NCBI GenBank assembly: GCA_020428645.1
Contig: JAGQMN010000002.1
Coordinates: 36 to 64,035 of the forward strand
DNA from: Patescibacteria group bacterium
Lineage (GTDB): Bacteria > Patescibacteriota > Minisyncoccia > Phycocordibacterales > UBA1006
DNA: 64,000 nt
Direction: 5' to 3'
Shown here: piece by piece, positions 25,294 through 30,995 of the stretch
How positions within the stretch are numbered: the first letter of the stretch is position 1
Layout: each line of letters starts with the position of its first letter
The notes under the pieces: generated by a model
What the model saw: the letters and a program-made list of their open reading frames with translations, nothing else
Database searches by the model: none
Told to the model about the DNA's origin: nothing
Position numbers and translations under genes: made by a program

Positions 25294-25905
25294 TTAATAC
25301 CACTCTAATACCTCGGTCGTTTTCGAATAGGTAGGCGACCAAAGTTCAACTGTTTTGATTGCTTCTCCTTTTGGAAAATCTATCGGGTCATTAGGGGTTG
25401 ATTGCCTTTTTGCTATCACACTTTGGGAATATAACTCACCGTCTTTCCACTGACGTTTAATTTGATGCTTTTCATAAGGTCCGACATTCTTTTCTGTAAG
25501 TTCTTCGAAAGCCAGTTTCCCGTTATACCAAGATCGTCGATGATCAAATTCCAAATAAACATTCCATTCCCTTATGGATTTTAAGGAACCATCGGGGTTA
25601 AACTTTTTCTCAATTTGATTACCGTCAGAATCCATCGAATAGGTATACTTGAAACCTCCATCTAAGTAATGTTCCACACTGCTAGATACACCATTAGGTT
25701 TAAAGTATCTAGACCTGGACTTTAGTTGCCCTGTCTCATACCACTTTTCAACCATTACGACATTATGTTCACTATCATAAGTCGCACGGTCTCTTAACAT
25801 TTTATTTTCGTAAAATGTCTGCTCAGTGGTAAAACCTGAACTGCAAGAAGATGACAGTCCAAGGATTGCAATAATCACCAATAAAGATGTCAAAAAAGTT
25901 TTCAT
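25294..25905 (-). CDS. lipoprotein with MORN-variant (YwqK-like) repeats
   Basis: Signal peptide with lipobox (ILGLSSSC). Repeated W/Y-x-x-G-x-L-x motifs (WYETGQLKS, NPDGSLKS, WYNGKLAF, WKDGELYS). Confidence 0.55.
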   Translation of the reverse strand: MKTFLTSLLVIIAILGLSSSCSSGFTTEQTFYENKMLRDRATYDSEHNVVMVEKWYETGQLKSRSRYFKPNGVSSSVEHYLDGGFKYTYSMDSDGNQIEKKFNPDGSLKSIREWNVYLEFDHRRSWYNGKLAFEELTEKNVGPYEKHQIKRQWKDGELYSQSVIAKRQSTPNDPIDFPKGEAIKTVELWSPTYSKTTEVLEWY

Positions 25906-26007
25906 TGTTATTGTTTTAAAAAGTTAATATTTCAGGTAAATTTTAACAAATTATAATAAATAGTCAAATTTCTATTGAAAAAATTTTGTGAGCTGATATC
26001 TTGGGTC

Positions 26008-26641
26008 TGTCTGCATCAGGTGATCGCGCGACCCCCCACAACTTTTAATAGTATATACGTGATATATTTTAACTATGTATTACGTATACGTTCTCAAGAG
26101 TGAAAAAGATAGTAAACATTATATTGGTTACACAAACGACCTCAAGAGAAGGTTTGAAGAACATAATCAAGGTAATAATCTTTCAACAAGAAACAGAATT
26201 CCGTTTGAGTTAATATATTATGAAGCGTATACGCATAAATCACTAGCAATACGTAGAGAAAATAAATTAAAGGAGTTTAAAAATTCTTACACTCAATTAT
26301 TCAAGAGAATATATGAATAGTATTAAAAGTTGTGGGGGGAGTGAGGAAAGTCCGGACACGTACCTTTTATAGGTAAAACGGTAGCAGGTAACGCCTGCCG
26401 GGAGCAATTCTAGGGATGCGAGCAGTGACGCCCAAGCCGAGAGGCGATGGCTCCCCCACCATAGCATGGTGGGGGATGAATCCTCTGGTAACAGAGGGGT
26501 GAAACGGCAAAATTCCTACCTACGTGCAAGGTCGTACCCCCCACAATTCTTTGTGGGGGGAGTGCCGCAAAGAATCGCATGGCGACATGTGGTCAAGATA
26601 AATGATCATCCCAGACAGAATCCGGCTTATCGATGCAAACA
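26008..26641 (+). ncRNA. rnpB: RNase P RNA (bacterial type A) with a 270-nt insertion in P3
   Basis: CR-I GAGGAAAGTCCGGAC at 26343-26357, GGTAACGCCTGCC, GGGGTGAAACGGCA, and CR-V ACAGAATCCGGCTTATC at 26615-26631. P1 pairs 26008-26017 with 26632-26641. P2 pairs 26019-26025 with 26604-26610. P3 is the 19-bp helix 26032-26050 / 26321-26339. Confidence 0.88.
26075..26320 (+). CDS. GIY-YIG nuclease family protein, encoded inside the RNase P RNA P3 loop
   Basis: 81 aa: YYVYVLKSEKDSKHYIGYTNDLKRRFEEHN...R...E. GIY-YIG core with conserved Arg, Glu and Asn. The stop codon abuts the 3' arm of the P3 helix. Confidence 0.85.
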   Translation: MYYVYVLKSEKDSKHYIGYTNDLKRRFEEHNQGNNLSTRNRIPFELIYYEAYTHKSLAIRRENKLKEFKNSYTQLFKRIYE

Positions 26642-26678
26642 GTATGAAAAATCACAGGTATTCCCTGTGATTTTTTAC

Positions 26679-27170
26679 TTACCAATCAAATACACTACCG
26701 AGCGTAACACCGTAGGTATCAGCAAATCCCGCAATCGTTTCTACAACGTACAGCGCCGGCATGGATGGTTGGTACGTCTCTGGGTAATCATTTGGATCTG
26801 CATTCTGTTTCATGAAGACCACCTCTCTATCAGCATTCAACCACAACATATCGATCTGAAAATCCATATCTTTCATCCAAAAACTATAGCGACCTGGTGT
26901 ATCAAACACAAAGAGCATAGCTTGGTTTTCCTGTAGTAATGTATGTCCTGAGAGTCCACGTGCACGTTCGTTTGGCTGATCAGCAATCATTGTTTCAAGC
27001 TCAATACCATTAATTGTTAGTATGCGATCCACGTGGTGTACACCAGTGCTAGGAGGGGTTGTACGTATAGGAGAAATAACTATAAATAGACCAATAGCGA
27101 GTACCACAAGTATTGCACCAATGGTACGAAAGGTTGTTGTATCTATGCGCCTTTGGCGAATGGGTGTCAT
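26679..27170 (-). CDS. DUF192 domain protein with an N-terminal membrane anchor
   Basis: 163 aa: ADQPNERARGLSGH...MLFVF...FWMKDMDFQIDMLWLN, typical of DUF192. Confidence 0.75.
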   Translation of the reverse strand: MTPIRQRRIDTTTFRTIGAILVVLAIGLFIVISPIRTTPPSTGVHHVDRILTINGIELETMIADQPNERARGLSGHTLLQENQAMLFVFDTPGRYSFWMKDMDFQIDMLWLNADREVVFMKQNADPNDYPETYQPSMPALYVVETIAGFADTYGVTLGSVFDW

Positions 27171-29092: not shown

Positions 29093-29638
29093 ATGACAAC
29101 TATAGTCCAAGTAGGAAAAAAAGTGCTCCGCATGAAAGCACAAGAAGTACCAAAAGATGCTATTGCCTCGCCCGAAATACAGGGTGTGATAGCGCGTATG
29201 AACGAAGCGCTCGCCACCCAAAATGATGGGGTTGCTATTGCCGCACCACAAATTGGTGAATCCTATCGTATCTTTACGATTTCACCTGTTGTATTTGAAG
29301 AACCTGGTGATTACCATTTGGTCTACATCAATCCTGAAATAATGGAGGTGTCTAAGAAAACAAAGCTCTTGAATGAAGGGTGCCTCTCGTGTCGTTGGAA
29401 AATTGGCGATGTAGAAAGACACCTAACGGCAACGGTTCGGGCATATGACGAATATGGTAACCAATTTACTGAATCAGCTGACGGACTCCTCGCACATATT
29501 TTCCAACACGAAACCGATCACCTTGATGGTATTCTCTTTATCGACAAAGCAGAAAATCTGCGCGATATGACTGAGGAAGAAATTAATGAGGTACTCCAAG
29601 AAAATGCATCCCCACGGTACGACCAAATTAAAGACTAA
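29093..29638 (+). CDS. def: peptide deformylase
   Basis: 181 aa from the ATG at 29093: GVAIAAPQIG, EGCLS, HETDHLDG. The track ORF starting at 28937 is an upstream extension that overlaps hisS. Confidence 0.93.
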   Translation: MTTIVQVGKKVLRMKAQEVPKDAIASPEIQGVIARMNEALATQNDGVAIAAPQIGESYRIFTISPVVFEEPGDYHLVYINPEIMEVSKKTKLLNEGCLSCRWKIGDVERHLTATVRAYDEYGNQFTESADGLLAHIFQHETDHLDGILFIDKAENLRDMTEEEINEVLQENASPRYDQIKD

Positions 29639-29650
29639 CAGAAAAAAATA

Positions 29651-29679
29651 AAAACCACAGCCAAATGGCTGTGGTTTTT
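29651..29679 (+). terminator. intrinsic terminator after def
   Basis: AAAACCACAGCC-AAAT-GGCTGTGGTTTTT. Confidence 0.8.
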
Positions 29680-29752
29680 ATTGAACATGTCACAAACTAA
29701 ATTATGCTATGTGAACATATTTATACGTCATAACATAGTGGTATGAAATAAT

Positions 29753-29855
29753 TAAGAGAGGTTCTCTGTCATTCAGCGACAGATCGGGCGATGATACTTC
29801 ATCTAAGTATCATCGCCCGAATCCGGGACTGAATAGAATACCTCGTGTATCTATT
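29753..29855 (+). repeat. island end motif, copy 1 (TAAGAGAGGTTCT plus hairpins)
   Basis: TAAGAGAGGTTCTCTGTCATTCAGCGACAGATCGGG-[hairpin 29785-29819]-CCCGAATCC. Same architecture as 31119 and, inverted, 35528. Confidence 0.7.
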
Positions 29856-30019
29856 TTCTTCCTCCCCTCACTTTTACTAGACAGCAAAAGTGAGGGGATA
29901 AAAAAGTCGAATTTTACCTGACTGGATGGTATTCAACAAGACCATAACCTATTTAATTAAGATGCTCATCCCGAAGGATTCCCGAAATGGCTTTGCCATT
30001 TCGGGACCTAAACCTAGGT
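29856..30019 (-). repeat. island junction module J1
   Basis: Read on the minus strand: stop, 18-nt palindrome, hairpin 29980-30006, CCUUCGGG 29968-29979, degenerate AT hairpin, TTTTTTAT, variable hairpin 29864-29897, AGGAAGAA. Confidence 0.6.
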
Positions 30020-30415
30020 TTAGGATTTTTTTAACTTCGCTCCCCAACTATCAGCGAGGTTCTCTAGGGTTGGATCTTTTTTCTCTGATTTTTTAAAAAA
30101 ATCTTTCCCTACGGCAACCTCCTGGTCAGGACAATCTCTCTCGTTTACAAAACGAGAGGCAATCTCTTCTGCCCAGCCTAAGGGTGCAATGAGGAGTTTC
30201 CAACCCTCGCTTCCAGAACCTCCATACGTAGTAGTCTCCGATAAAATTCTAAGATTATTATCAGAATGAACAGAGAAAGCTGGCCATCTTTTTGCTCCGG
30301 ATCCCGGTCTATACTCTTGAACCAGGACAAGTTCTTGATTACAAGAACTTTTTTCATCAATTTCTCTCAAAAAGATTTTATCTTCTGAGGAAATGAAAAC
30401 ATTAGCAGCATACAC
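30020..30415 (-). CDS. hypothetical protein (island gene A)
   Basis: 131-aa ORF with a GTG start (uncertain). No recognisable family. Lies between the intact def and the displaced def 3' fragment. Confidence 0.45.
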   Translation of the reverse strand: MYAANVFISSEDKIFLREIDEKSSCNQELVLVQEYRPGSGAKRWPAFSVHSDNNLRILSETTTYGGSGSEGWKLLIAPLGWAEEIASRFVNERDCPDQEVAVGKDFFKKSEKKDPTLENLADSWGAKLKKS

Positions 30416-30453
30416 ATATCCCTCACTCTTATTGGAGGTTGCGAGATGGTTTT

Positions 30454-30546
30454 GATCACCTCGACGGTGTATTGTTCATCGACAAAGCACGTAAATTACG
30501 CGACATGACTGATGAAGAAATTAATGAGGTTTTACAGAAAAAATAG
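30454..30546 (+). pseudogene. displaced 3' fragment of a peptide deformylase gene
   Basis: Translates to DHLDGVLFIDKARKLRDMTDEEINEVLQKK*, which parallels def residues DHLDGILFIDKAENLRDMTEEEINEVLQEN (29516-29605). By eye about four fifths of nucleotides are identical. No 5' part is present. Confidence 0.85.
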
Positions 30547-30547
30547 T

Positions 30548-30995
30548 ATGGAAAAATTCAACGACAATCAAAAAAAAAGAGAAAGAGCCTGAGTTCGATG
30601 AGTTTCCAAAAGAATTTGGTAGATACTATCATGGTTCACCGCATAACGTAGAGGAATTATTAAGTCCAAAAGAAAGCGGAAATATTAGACCTGGTGAGGA
30701 AGTGAGACGATCTTTTAAGGATGTAGTATTTCTCACTAAGGATATACAACAAGCGGTACAATATGCTGGTCCTGGTGGAGTAGTCTACCATGTAGATGCT
30801 GACGCAGTCCGGTACAAAGACATTGCTGCTACATATCTCAATCCTAAAAAACTAAAATCAGTGAGCGAAAATATTTATGTTGCAAAACCTGAAGATATCG
30901 AAATGGTAGTCAAGTGGGTAAAGCAAGCAAATAGAAGAAAAAATGAACCTGAAAAGTATGTGGATTACTATGTTAAGAAATCACCTGAGCGATAG
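30548..30995 (+). pseudogene. frameshifted small gene (island gene F) with a YHGSP motif; broken or slippage-dependent at an A9 tract
   Basis: The ATG at 30548 opens a 14-codon frame that stops at 30590. The long frame (open from 30528, ending at 30995) has no ATG/GTG/TTG before 30702. Losing one A from the A9 run at 30570-30578 fuses the two into about 149 aa. Confidence 0.6.

Follow-up and report, generated by a model that had tools for sequence, protein, structure and literature searches.

A 64-kb stretch of a contig from a metagenome-assembled genome (MAG), listed in GenBank as 'Patescibacteria group bacterium' and referred to here as the window, carries at 26008–26641 what can be taken with high confidence to be a single RNase P RNA gene (rnpB) in which a mobile hairpin element encoding a GIY-YIG nuclease stands as helix P3. 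The element is 308 bp long and has palindromic ends. The whole 19–23 bp stem, C-run included, is its terminal inverted repeat, and the element thereby supplies the entire P3. Related copies, whose loci are designated L001, L002 and so on, occupy this and other helices of rnpB, interrupt ribosomal RNA genes and lie next to tRNA genes.

The RNase P RNA gene and its interrupted helix

The gene is assigned to type A, and it shows exact matches to the universally conserved sequences of conserved region I (CR-I; GAGGAAAGUCCGG, 26343–26355) and conserved region V (CR-V; ACAGAAnCCGGCUUA, 26615–26629), which together make up P4. The features of the gene and of the element within it are as follows.

25975–26002, plus strand: promoter-like site for rnpB (hexamers TTGAAA and TATCTT, 16 nt apart, the latter preceded by TG)
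26008–26641, plus strand: entire rnpB gene of type A; length 634 nt, or 364 nt once 26051–26320 is deleted
26008–26017, plus strand: P1 5' strand, TGTCTGCATC, pairs with 26632–26641
26019–26025, plus strand: P2 5' strand, GGTGATC, pairs with 26604–26610
26032–26339, plus strand: palindrome-ended GIY-YIG mini-element, 308 bp (left repeat, open reading frame, right repeat); 98.7% identical to the L001 copy
26032–26054, plus strand: left terminal inverted repeat and P3 5' strand, CCCCCCACAACTTTTAATAGTAT; family consensus CCCCCCACcAcTTtTat
26075–26320, plus strand: GIY-YIG open reading frame, 81 aa, UPF0213/Slx1-like stand-alone type
26317–26339, plus strand: right terminal inverted repeat and P3 3' strand, holding the TAG stop codon
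26343–26357, plus strand: CR-I, P4 5' strand, GAGGAAAGTCCGGAC
26604–26610, plus strand: P2 3' strand, GATCATC, pairs with 26019–26025
26615–26631, plus strand: CR-V, P4 3' strand, ACAGAATCCGGCTTATC
26632–26641, plus strand: P1 3' strand, GATGCAAACA, pairs with 26008–26017
26647–26675, strand not assigned: terminator-like hairpin with a 12-bp stem and A/T-run flanks, placed where the convergent rnpB and DUF192 genes meet

P1 pairs at nine of ten positions, with one C–A mismatch, and P2 over 7 bp, one of them G–U. P2 is separated from CR-I by an inverted repeat that is perfect over 19 bp (26032–26050 with 26321–26339) and lengthens to 23 nt at 96% complementarity (26032–26054 with 26317–26339). 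Minimum free energy (MFE) folding recovered P1, P2 and P3 as proposed, both in the full 634-nt RNA and in the 364-nt RNA left by removal of 26051–26320. The insert has a G+C content of 28%, compared with 52% for the rest of rnpB and 41% for the window. This arrangement had been put forward in an earlier account made from the letters alone (the sequence-only reading). Its coordinates for CR-I, CR-V, P1, P2, the 19-bp helix and the open reading frame (ORF) are all correct, and its figure of 364 nt for the deleted RNA agrees with the sequence. Its core claim, that of one rnpB gene with the 5' strands of P1 and P2 upstream of an intact, same-strand GIY-YIG ORF in P3, is sustained by the folding, by homology with L001 and by covariation of P1; the promoter-like site 5' of P1, the terminator hairpin 3' of the gene and the element-free P3 of relatives lend it further support.

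In gathering mode, with its RF00010 cut-off of 100 bits, Rfam did not detect the rnpB of the window, and in lenient mode RF00010 matched 26331–26645 only (79.2 bits, E=2.9e-24). The resulting alignment omits P3 altogether and pushes the 5' positions of P1 and P2 onto GGGGGGAGUG with non-canonical pairs. It holds no alternative complete P1–P3 3' of the ORF, an outcome which the sequence-only reading had raised against itself for the region beyond 26320. The score falls below threshold because the 5' strands of P1–P3 are parted from the remainder of the RNA by the 308-bp element.

In comparison with the close relative L001, homology between the two begins at 26009, at the 5' end of P1. The promoter-like site at 25975–26002 ends approximately 6 nt 5' of P1. 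At the other end of the gene, the terminator scan called the hairpin at 26647–26675 on the minus strand only, and its use on the plus strand is our own reading of the sequence. Catalysis of pre-tRNA 5' maturation by the RNA of the window is a putative function, drawn from its class-A membership. Immediately upstream, a 203-aa ORF on the minus strand (25294–25905) lies between trmD and rnpB; it has a signal-peptide-like N-terminus and no NCBIfam match. This ORF is missing from L001, where trmD adjoins rnpB and where homology to the window breaks at the 5' end of P1.

The same P3 arrangement recurs in metagenomes. A search pattern of CCCCCAC-N265-295-GTGGGGG-N0-5-GGAAAGTCC, in which the orientation of any ORF was left free, matched 61 metagenome contigs. 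A GIY-YIG ORF was found in the gap in 55 of these, in every case (55/55) on the rnpB strand; 48 of the 55 ORFs are intact and seven are frameshifted or truncated. The sequences of P1 differ widely between these loci and the pairing is kept, thus P1 covaries: the 49 unique cases with CR-V have a mean of 13.5 pairs in cis, whereas strands taken from different loci average 7.5, and at least 11 pairs form in 42 of the 49. A -10-like hexamer ending 3–10 nt 5' of P1 was present in 35 of 41 P3-type rnpB genes, against a background of 15%, and 19 of the 35 boxes carry a TGn extension. The same junctions were seen across independent ENA, JGI, Logan and GenBank assemblies.

A family of hairpin elements in stable-RNA genes

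Four of the five closest homologues of the nuclease were examined on their contigs, and all four lie inside rnpB. L001 (96% protein identity) and L004 (68%) have the element in P3, whilst L002 (78–79%) and L003 (75–76%) have it in the P15–17 hairpin and no ORF in P3. The gene neighbourhood DUF192–rnpB–trmD is common to L003 and the window. A wider set of 80 loci from GTDB genomes was collected by protein profile and searched with Rfam, and in four of these the Rfam hit spans the ORF. RF00010 aligns to L017 with 250.8 bits around a 291-nt insert in the loop of P9, and to L013 with 134.9 bits around an insert at the P15–17 site; the ORF-spanning hits of L018 and L005 likewise place the insert at P15–17. 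L007 and L009 share the P3 arrangement of the window, and L009 has a canonical TTGACA-N17-TATAAT promoter sequence 5' of P1. Thus the family uses P3, P9 and P15–17 as insertion sites in rnpB, co-oriented with the host gene. Besides its P3 element, the rnpB of L007 has an additional insert, AT-rich and some 170 nt long, which separates the P2 3' strand from CR-V (L007:3140–3306). The sequence-only reading had anticipated insert-free alleles among relatives, and element-free P3 helices of 4–10 bp do occur in L002, L005, L013, L017 and L035.

Copies are also found in other stable-RNA genes. Rfam places them inside 16S (L025, L060) and 23S (L033, L064) rRNA genes, on the rRNA strand; their proteins are 49–59% identical to that of the window and they are bounded by the same kind of inverted repeat. 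According to ARAGORN, about 19 copies directly precede a tRNA gene with which they share the strand, and two are on the opposite strand. In several tRNA-adjacent copies the G-run of the right repeat provides the first bases of the tRNA, and several have a 4–11-nt duplicate of the tRNA 5' end to the left of the element. The family as a whole is located mainly in Patescibacteria.

Some neighbouring arrangements deserve mention in their own right. At L022:1832–2426 a tandem pair of elements (ORFs 1852–2121 and 2154–2423) lies directly 5' of a tRNA-Ala gene, the copies being parted by a 9-nt repeat, GCCAGTAGT, with which the tRNA-Ala itself begins. A repeat-less GIY-YIG subfamily occurs in L014, L023, L026, L056, L069 and L071 (at about 2400–2840 in each), where the order is a duplicated tRNA 5' part, two small G+C-rich hairpins, the gene and a complete tRNA (Trp, Glu, Tyr or Ser). 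The duplicated part is mostly a 5' half that reaches to the anticodon loop, and this layout resembles what single-crossover integration within a tRNA 5' half would leave. A transfer-messenger RNA (tmRNA) gene of a MAG labelled Bdellovibrionales has a co-oriented GIY-YIG homologue some 120 nt to its 5' side (L044:2501–3271), and tmRNA may be a further stable-RNA neighbour of the family. Finally, the elements at L011:2455–2800 (an Omnitrophota MAG) and L055:2455–2800 (a Planctomycetia MAG) have similar flanks, GCCGAAyTT ... TyAATTCG, which are mutually complementary; this hints at another conserved host hairpin, possibly of an unknown RNA.

The inverted repeat defines the family. In a survey for which ORFs were picked by protein similarity alone and their flanks then scanned, 84 of 131 non-redundant ORFs proved to be bracketed by a repeat with the consensus CCCCCCACcAcTTtTat, and CCC..CAC was present in 79 of these 84. 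The consensus of the element ends is CCCCCCACCACTTTTAT...ATAAAAGTGGTGGGGGG, and the repeat is the same in rnpB, rRNA-gene, tRNA-adjacent and intergenic copies. Its outer 7–8 positions are conserved in sequence. The inner ones are variable, yet as far in as position 18 they remain 83–95% Watson–Crick paired, each of the four pair types being represented, so that the stems, mostly of at least 18 bp, show compensatory variation. The unit has a median length of 293 bp, a median gap of 2.5 nt between the left arm and the ATG, and its stop codon within the right arm; about 62 of the 308 nt are non-coding in the copy of the window. Where L002 has ...CCGCGCTACGG before CR-I, the window has GCGCGA-[element]-AG. 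The sequence-only reading had divided the stem into a native 10-bp P3 and 9-bp termini brought by the insert. That division does not hold, the whole 19–23 bp stem being conserved as the element's repeat in other contexts. A stem of this length agrees with the definition of an intervening sequence (IVS), namely a helix-loop insert whose complementary ends form a duplex of about two helical turns, whilst conserved terminal inverted repeats and non-autonomous deletion derivatives are attributes that the family shares with transposable elements.

Probable derivatives of this kind are present in the window itself, where two further hairpins of rnpB resemble the repeat and have no ORF.

26452–26476, plus strand: ORF-less repeat-like hairpin in the P12 region, TCCCCCACCAT-AGC-ATGGTGGGGGA; also in L001
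26537–26560, plus strand: ORF-less hairpin at the P15–17 site, CCCCCCACAA-TTCT-TTGTGGGGGG; stem identical to the outer P3 stem

The 10-bp stem of the second hairpin is identical to the outer stem of P3, as had been recorded before, and the hairpin shares 14 of 14 nt (TTGTGGGGGGAGTG) with the P3 3' arm. It had also been seen as an uninterrupted version of the target, a view which the comparison with relatives makes improbable: the site is filled by a full element in L002, L003, L005, L013 and L018, the hairpin is not present in L001, which has a repeat-like hairpin elsewhere, and L003 contains a mini-copy. The hairpin is better read as a solo, ORF-less remnant of the element. The mini-copy, directly after CR-I at L003:430–493, is 64 nt long; its ends match the window element at 13/13 and 27/30 positions and it retains the last codons of the ORF, from which it follows that internal deletion yields ORF-less hairpins. 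The rnpB of L003 holds three states of the element, namely a full copy at P15–17 (ORF 690–938), the mini-copy and, at 375–406, a P3 resembling a decayed solo repeat, CCCCACACCACTTTCTTACGAAAGTAGTGTGAGGG. Among relatives, these sites may be empty of the element, reduced to a solo hairpin or filled by an internally deleted copy. Elsewhere in the window, an ORF-poor region of about 1 kb (29640–30700) is crowded with strong hairpins, one of which (29864–29897) resembles the element repeat, CCCCTCACTTTTACTAGACAGCAAAAGTGAGGGG. No tRNA, tmRNA or credible Rfam match was found in this region (Rfam on 29550–30750, best E 0.035–0.064), which may encode a structured RNA that has so far escaped recognition or be a collection of decayed element copies.

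Traces of movement are also seen in sequence comparisons. The window protein is nearer to those of P15-site copies (L002, L003) than to those of other P3 copies (at most 70%). Between the window and L001, P1–P2 are 100% identical, the element 98.7% and the 3' part of rnpB 97%, whilst the DUF192 gene is 95.9% and trmD 88% identical; the S-domain (26361–26564) is only about 65% identical, the divergent block begins some 20 nt beyond the P3 element on its 3' side and extends as far as the P15 hairpin. Such a mosaic may reflect recombination stimulated at the repeats, and the identity of the element tract relative to its flanks and the S-domain hints, indirectly, at spread through double-strand-break repair. 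Distances between proteins correlate poorly with those between their host rnpB genes (Spearman rho 0.12, Mantel p ~0.05) and nearest neighbours agree in 14 of 40 cases, a weak and borderline result that is compatible with horizontal movement but does not prove it.

The most serious competitor to a mobile element, albeit an improbable one, is a P3 expansion domesticated long ago and inherited vertically, its nuclease serving the host (for example in DNA repair), borrowing the strong rnpB promoter and the element no longer moving. The intact ORF of 48 of the 55 P3 copies, under strong purifying selection, would be expected of such a gene, although the other seven are pseudogenised. Similarly, the P3 form is widespread across Patescibacteria classes, yet congruence between host and element is weak and the closest kin of the window protein occupy another site in rnpB. 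UPF0213 proteins are indeed ordinary chromosomal genes in many bacteria, but here the same repeat accompanies rRNA-gene, tRNA-adjacent and intergenic copies, a tandem duplication included, and solo and internally deleted copies occur, with close strains differing in presence or absence.

A number of points count against mobility and against the picture drawn here, and should be set beside this evidence. The metagenome pattern presupposes the repeat. Many P3 copies could stem vertically from few old insertions, and the 55/55 co-orientation therefore does not represent 55 independent events. The weak congruence may in part be saturation in a protein of 85 aa. A fixed-length target-site duplication was sought and none was found at rnpB sites, whilst at tRNA sites the duplication is 4–11 nt or a tRNA 5' half; insertion is therefore unlike that of a classical transposase. 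The window contains one full copy of the element in 64 kb. Native helices, C-rich on one strand and G-rich on the other, are a conceivable alternative for the solo hairpins, as the P3 5' strand of the Rfam consensus is also C-rich. Lastly, the ends of the transcript, the retention or excision of the loop and the translation of the ORF are all deduced from sequence.

The nuclease, its expression and the fate of the RNA

The 81-aa ORF in the hairpin loop, which GenBank annotates as an ordinary coding sequence (CDS; MCA9351892.1), matches Pfam GIY-YIG (PF01541) with E=1e-16 and 61.4 bits against a cut-off of 22.6, as expected from the sequence-only reading. The catalytic residues Y5, Y16, R26, H30 and E62 are invariant in 32 homologues. 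The ratio of non-synonymous to synonymous substitution (dN/dS) is 0.076 for L002 versus L003 and 0.053 for the window versus L003, these and few others being usable as most pairs are saturated; the predicted nuclease is thus under purifying selection. A profile search against PDB sequences returned UPF0213 protein BH0048 (1zg2, E=6e-12), EF2693 (1ywl) and then SLX1, with I-TevI at E=7e-3. The AlphaFold2 model (mean confidence, pLDDT, 92.8) has a GIY-YIG fold with a three-stranded sheet and helices, and in Foldseek comparisons UPF0213 and the Slx1 nuclease domain (template-modelling score, TM, 0.64–0.70; root-mean-square deviation 2.4–3.6 A; 25–28% sequence identity to the Slx1 matches) come ahead of I-TevI (TM 0.49–0.50). 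No DNA-binding domain or linker was found in the 81 aa, all of which belong to the catalytic domain. The protein is therefore predicted, from sequence and model, to be a bare catalytic domain related to structure-specific nucleases of the UPF0213/Slx1 type. The sequence-only reading had placed it beside homing-endonuclease ORFs; the GIY-YIG assignment stands, whilst a classical homing type does not.

More than 1,300 homologues were found at E up to 1e-5, and the named ones are almost all from Patescibacteria. Close homologues (50–56% identity) also occur in Melioribacter isolates (L038, L053), Scalindua (L040) and Bacteroidales (L070), often adjoining tRNA genes, and the protein family is therefore not confined to bacteria of the candidate phyla radiation (CPR). 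Amongst these, L040 carries an 11-nt CCCCACACTTT repeat, and no element-type repeat was seen in L038, L053 or L070. The IMG/VR viral collection yielded seven weak relatives only and no sign of carriage by phages.

The kinship of the protein bears on the idea that the insert is a self-splicing group I or II intron with a classical homing endonuclease, removed to leave a continuous 364-nt RNA. Homing endonuclease genes are common in introns of the rRNA and tRNA genes of CPR bacteria (PMC11270868; PMC8172020), but published CPR rRNA inserts with GIY-YIG ORFs are likewise not intron-like (PMC11270868). The weak similarity to TIGR01453, the NCBIfam model of group I intron endonucleases, and to I-TevI amounts to 20 bits against a cut-off of 56 in the former case, and a DNA-binding domain is missing. 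With some 62 of 308 nt non-coding there is no room for a ribozyme core, and no intron family matched 25950–26700 at E up to 10. An intron of this kind is accordingly very hard to credit. Splicing of the insert, one of the fates that had been considered earlier, is very unlikely on account of the few non-coding nucleotides and the lack of an intron match. In the screening of candidates, both the self-splicing intron and an I-TevI-type homing enzyme were rejected, the former for want of an intron match and of space for a core, and the latter on its TIGR01453 score, its missing DNA-binding module and a fold nearer to Slx1/UPF0213.

How a protein might be made from the middle of a structural RNA is suggested by the gene starts of the host. 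Shine–Dalgarno sequences precede four of the 51 long ORFs of the window, which is the background level, whilst a TAnnnT box ends 4–10 nt 5' of the ATG in 28 of 64 long ORFs (background 13%), 14 of them with TGn. This suggests that host mRNAs are widely leaderless and transcribed from extended -10 promoters. Within the element one such motif is present.

26060–26068, plus strand: extended -10-like motif, TGATATATT, ending 6 nt 5' of the GIY-YIG ATG

A sigma-70 scan found no two-hexamer promoter within the element, and the extended -10 box emerged by comparison with host gene starts. Motifs akin to TGATATATT also occur in L002 and L003, and the box may be an internal promoter for a leaderless nuclease mRNA in this sublineage. 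Only 11 of 42 P3 elements have a box before the ATG, and in most the ATG comes directly after the left arm. With a median of 2.5 nt separating the left repeat from the ATG, a promoter of its own would not fit into most copies, and the general route would therefore be translation from the rnpB transcript. The promoter-like sequences 5' of P1, in the window and in the related genes, imply that transcription starts 5' of the element, which would then be part of the rnpB primary transcript.

The internal box also lends itself to a reading as two separate genes, in which the GIY-YIG gene is an upstream transcription unit of its own, rnpB starts after it and the upstream pairing of P1 and P2 is coincidental. 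The box could drive a separate leaderless mRNA, and both the plain CDS in GenBank and the limits of the Rfam hit, 26331–26645, agree with such an arrangement. It is contradicted by that same alignment, which deletes P3 and gives non-canonical P1 and P2 pairs 3' of the ORF, whereas MFE folding recovers the upstream strands of both helices. Moreover P1 covaries in 42 of 49 contigs, a -10 box stands 5' of P1 in 35 of 41 genes, L001 homology starts at the 5' end of P1, and L017, L013, L018 and L005 have the ORF mid-way in full-length Rfam hits. Two genes are thus scarcely plausible. A chimeric assembly, to which the MAG origin of the contig and the G+C contrast of 28% against 52% might point, can be set aside as having a negligible chance, the junctions being identical in the independent assemblies noted above and L001 being 98.7% identical over the element and both of its junctions.

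On the interpretation of the element as a mobile P3, a composite mechanism may be proposed that combines replacement of the helix with steps of expression, RNA fate and DNA mobility, and which is probable as a whole. In the RNA, the two repeats would pair to give a long helix serving as P3, and the core (P1, P2, P4, CR-I and CR-V) would still assemble. The nuclease would be translated from the rnpB transcript by leaderless, Shine–Dalgarno-free initiation during the synthesis of the approximately 270 nt that precede the 3' arm, the internal extended -10 box perhaps also contributing to its expression in this sublineage. The 5' arm covers the region just 5' of the start codon, so that initiation could occur only before the 3' arm is transcribed; the formed stem would occlude this region, initiation would end and P3 would form. 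It is from this geometry that we infer a kinetic window for translation followed by folding of P3. The loop would then either be kept, giving a 634-nt RNA, or be clipped at the long duplex in the manner of RNase III acting on rRNA intervening sequences, giving a two-piece ribozyme joined by P1, P2 and P3.

At the level of DNA, the palindromic ends are the probable substrate of the Slx1-like, structure-specific nuclease, whose action there would start recombination or gene conversion. The element would be copied between hairpin-encoding sites and would leave behind ORF-less hairpins such as those at 26452–26476 and 26537–26560. The GIY-YIG domain is the only protein encoded by the element, and no recognised transposase was found. 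All the rnpB sites used (P3, P9, P12 and P15–17) are peripheral. Two-thirds of CPR RNase P RNAs have no UGG motif in L15, according to Lui et al. (PMC8172020), which suggests that P15 is relaxed in the CPR group.

Relation to known systems and significance

GIY-YIG-encoding inserts in CPR rRNA genes are said to have been first noted by Brown et al. in 2015. Tsurumaki et al. (2024, PMC11270868) described GIY-YIG ORFs in non-intron inserts of CPR 16S and 23S rRNA genes and judged them sparse and outside a homing context; the terms 'RNase P', 'inverted repeat', 'hairpin' and 'tRNA' do not appear in their text. These inserts share with the window element the protein family, a non-intron insertion at the helix tip of a stable-RNA gene and an occurrence in Patescibacteria, but their host is an rRNA gene and that of the window element is rnpB (PMC11270868).

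The intervening sequences of 23S rRNA in Salmonella, Leptospira and others are excised by RNase III without religation, and some carry a small ORF of the S23p four-helix-bundle type, which is not a nuclease. To our knowledge, no IVS has been found in rnpB. Both an IVS and the window element are terminal-loop inserts with long complementary ends that form an extended stem; the ORF of an IVS, where there is one, is however of the S23p type and the host an rRNA gene, in contrast to the GIY-YIG ORF and rnpB host of the window element. An IVS of 23S rRNA genes extends a peripheral helix at its terminal loop, its two ends being complementary over a long stretch, and the host RNA works in fragmented form (PMC11270868).

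With I-TevI and the Seg proteins the window protein shares the GIY-YIG catalytic fold and residues and a selfish existence within essential genes. It differs in its 81 aa of catalytic domain only, with no linker, and in belonging to an element that has inverted repeats of its own and no intron. UPF0213/COG2827 proteins (BH0048, 1zg2; EF2693, 1ywl) and Slx1 are its best matches in both sequence and structure. Slx1 needs Slx4 and carries a RING domain, and UPF0213 proteins have been described as ordinary cellular genes; we know of no description of inverted repeats or of an RNA-gene association for either. Repetitive extragenic palindromes with their associated tyrosine transposases (REP/RAYT) and miniature inverted-repeat transposable elements (MITEs) offer another parallel, as they too have hairpin repeats and a protein-encoding autonomous form alongside ORF-less derivatives. 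Their transposases, by contrast, are of the tyrosine (HUH) or DDE types, whereas the present family has a GIY-YIG nuclease, a unit of about 290 bp and no fixed-length target duplication. Short tandem repeats in helix P12 of cyanobacterial RNase P RNA were reportedly found by Vioque in 1997, and they resemble the window element as repeats tolerated in peripheral helices of this RNA.

Divergent RNase P RNAs of CPR bacteria provide a further point of contact. Lui, Nielsen and Arkin (2021, PMC8172020) obtained no rnpB match in ten of 35 complete CPR genomes when Rfam was run with its default thresholds, and the rnpB of the window similarly falls below the gathering score. CPR RNase P RNAs with 'large extensions of helices', such as an extended P15, are noted in the same source, in the consulted passages of which neither an ORF nor a nuclease or mobile element is described within the helices (PMC8172020). 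A literature search of incomplete coverage gave no report of a bacterial rnpB broken by a protein-coding element or of this repeat architecture, which agrees with the novelty that the sequence-only reading had supposed for a GIY-YIG ORF in P3. The terms rnpB with GIY-YIG, intervening sequence or CPR led only to papers on fungal mitochondria, CPR rRNA insertions and diverged RNase P RNAs.

ORF-bearing intervening elements in stable-RNA genes are thus already known. What is new is the rnpB host, a distribution much wider than described and a defined repeat with a second role as an RNA helix. It is tempting to go further and to regard the family as a new class, an autonomous element of about 290 bp with an Slx1-like GIY-YIG gene and palindromic ends that replace an RNA helix, whose precursor is both ribozyme and mRNA, in which folding of P3 stops translation and which possibly yields a two-piece RNase P RNA. 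Such an element would settle in stable-RNA genes because its folded ends can take the place of a peripheral helix. The full set of these properties is advanced tentatively, and it falls a little short of an even chance of being right in every part.

RNase P RNA is universal and essential, and the form with an ORF in a helix recurs in at least 55 metagenome contigs, in several GTDB genomes and in three helices. The element offers a concrete cause for some of the missing or sub-threshold rnpB genes reported from complete CPR genomes (PMC8172020), and suggests that annotation pipelines would need insertion-tolerant rnpB models. One family with a defined repeat unites the GIY-YIG inserts of CPR rRNA genes, tRNA-adjacent GIY-YIG genes and the inserts in rnpB. 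It also provides natural test cases for the function of RNase P RNA in two pieces or with a 270-nt loop, for the translation of an ORF within a structural RNA, and for the way in which recognition and movement of a palindromic element are accomplished by a GIY-YIG domain alone.

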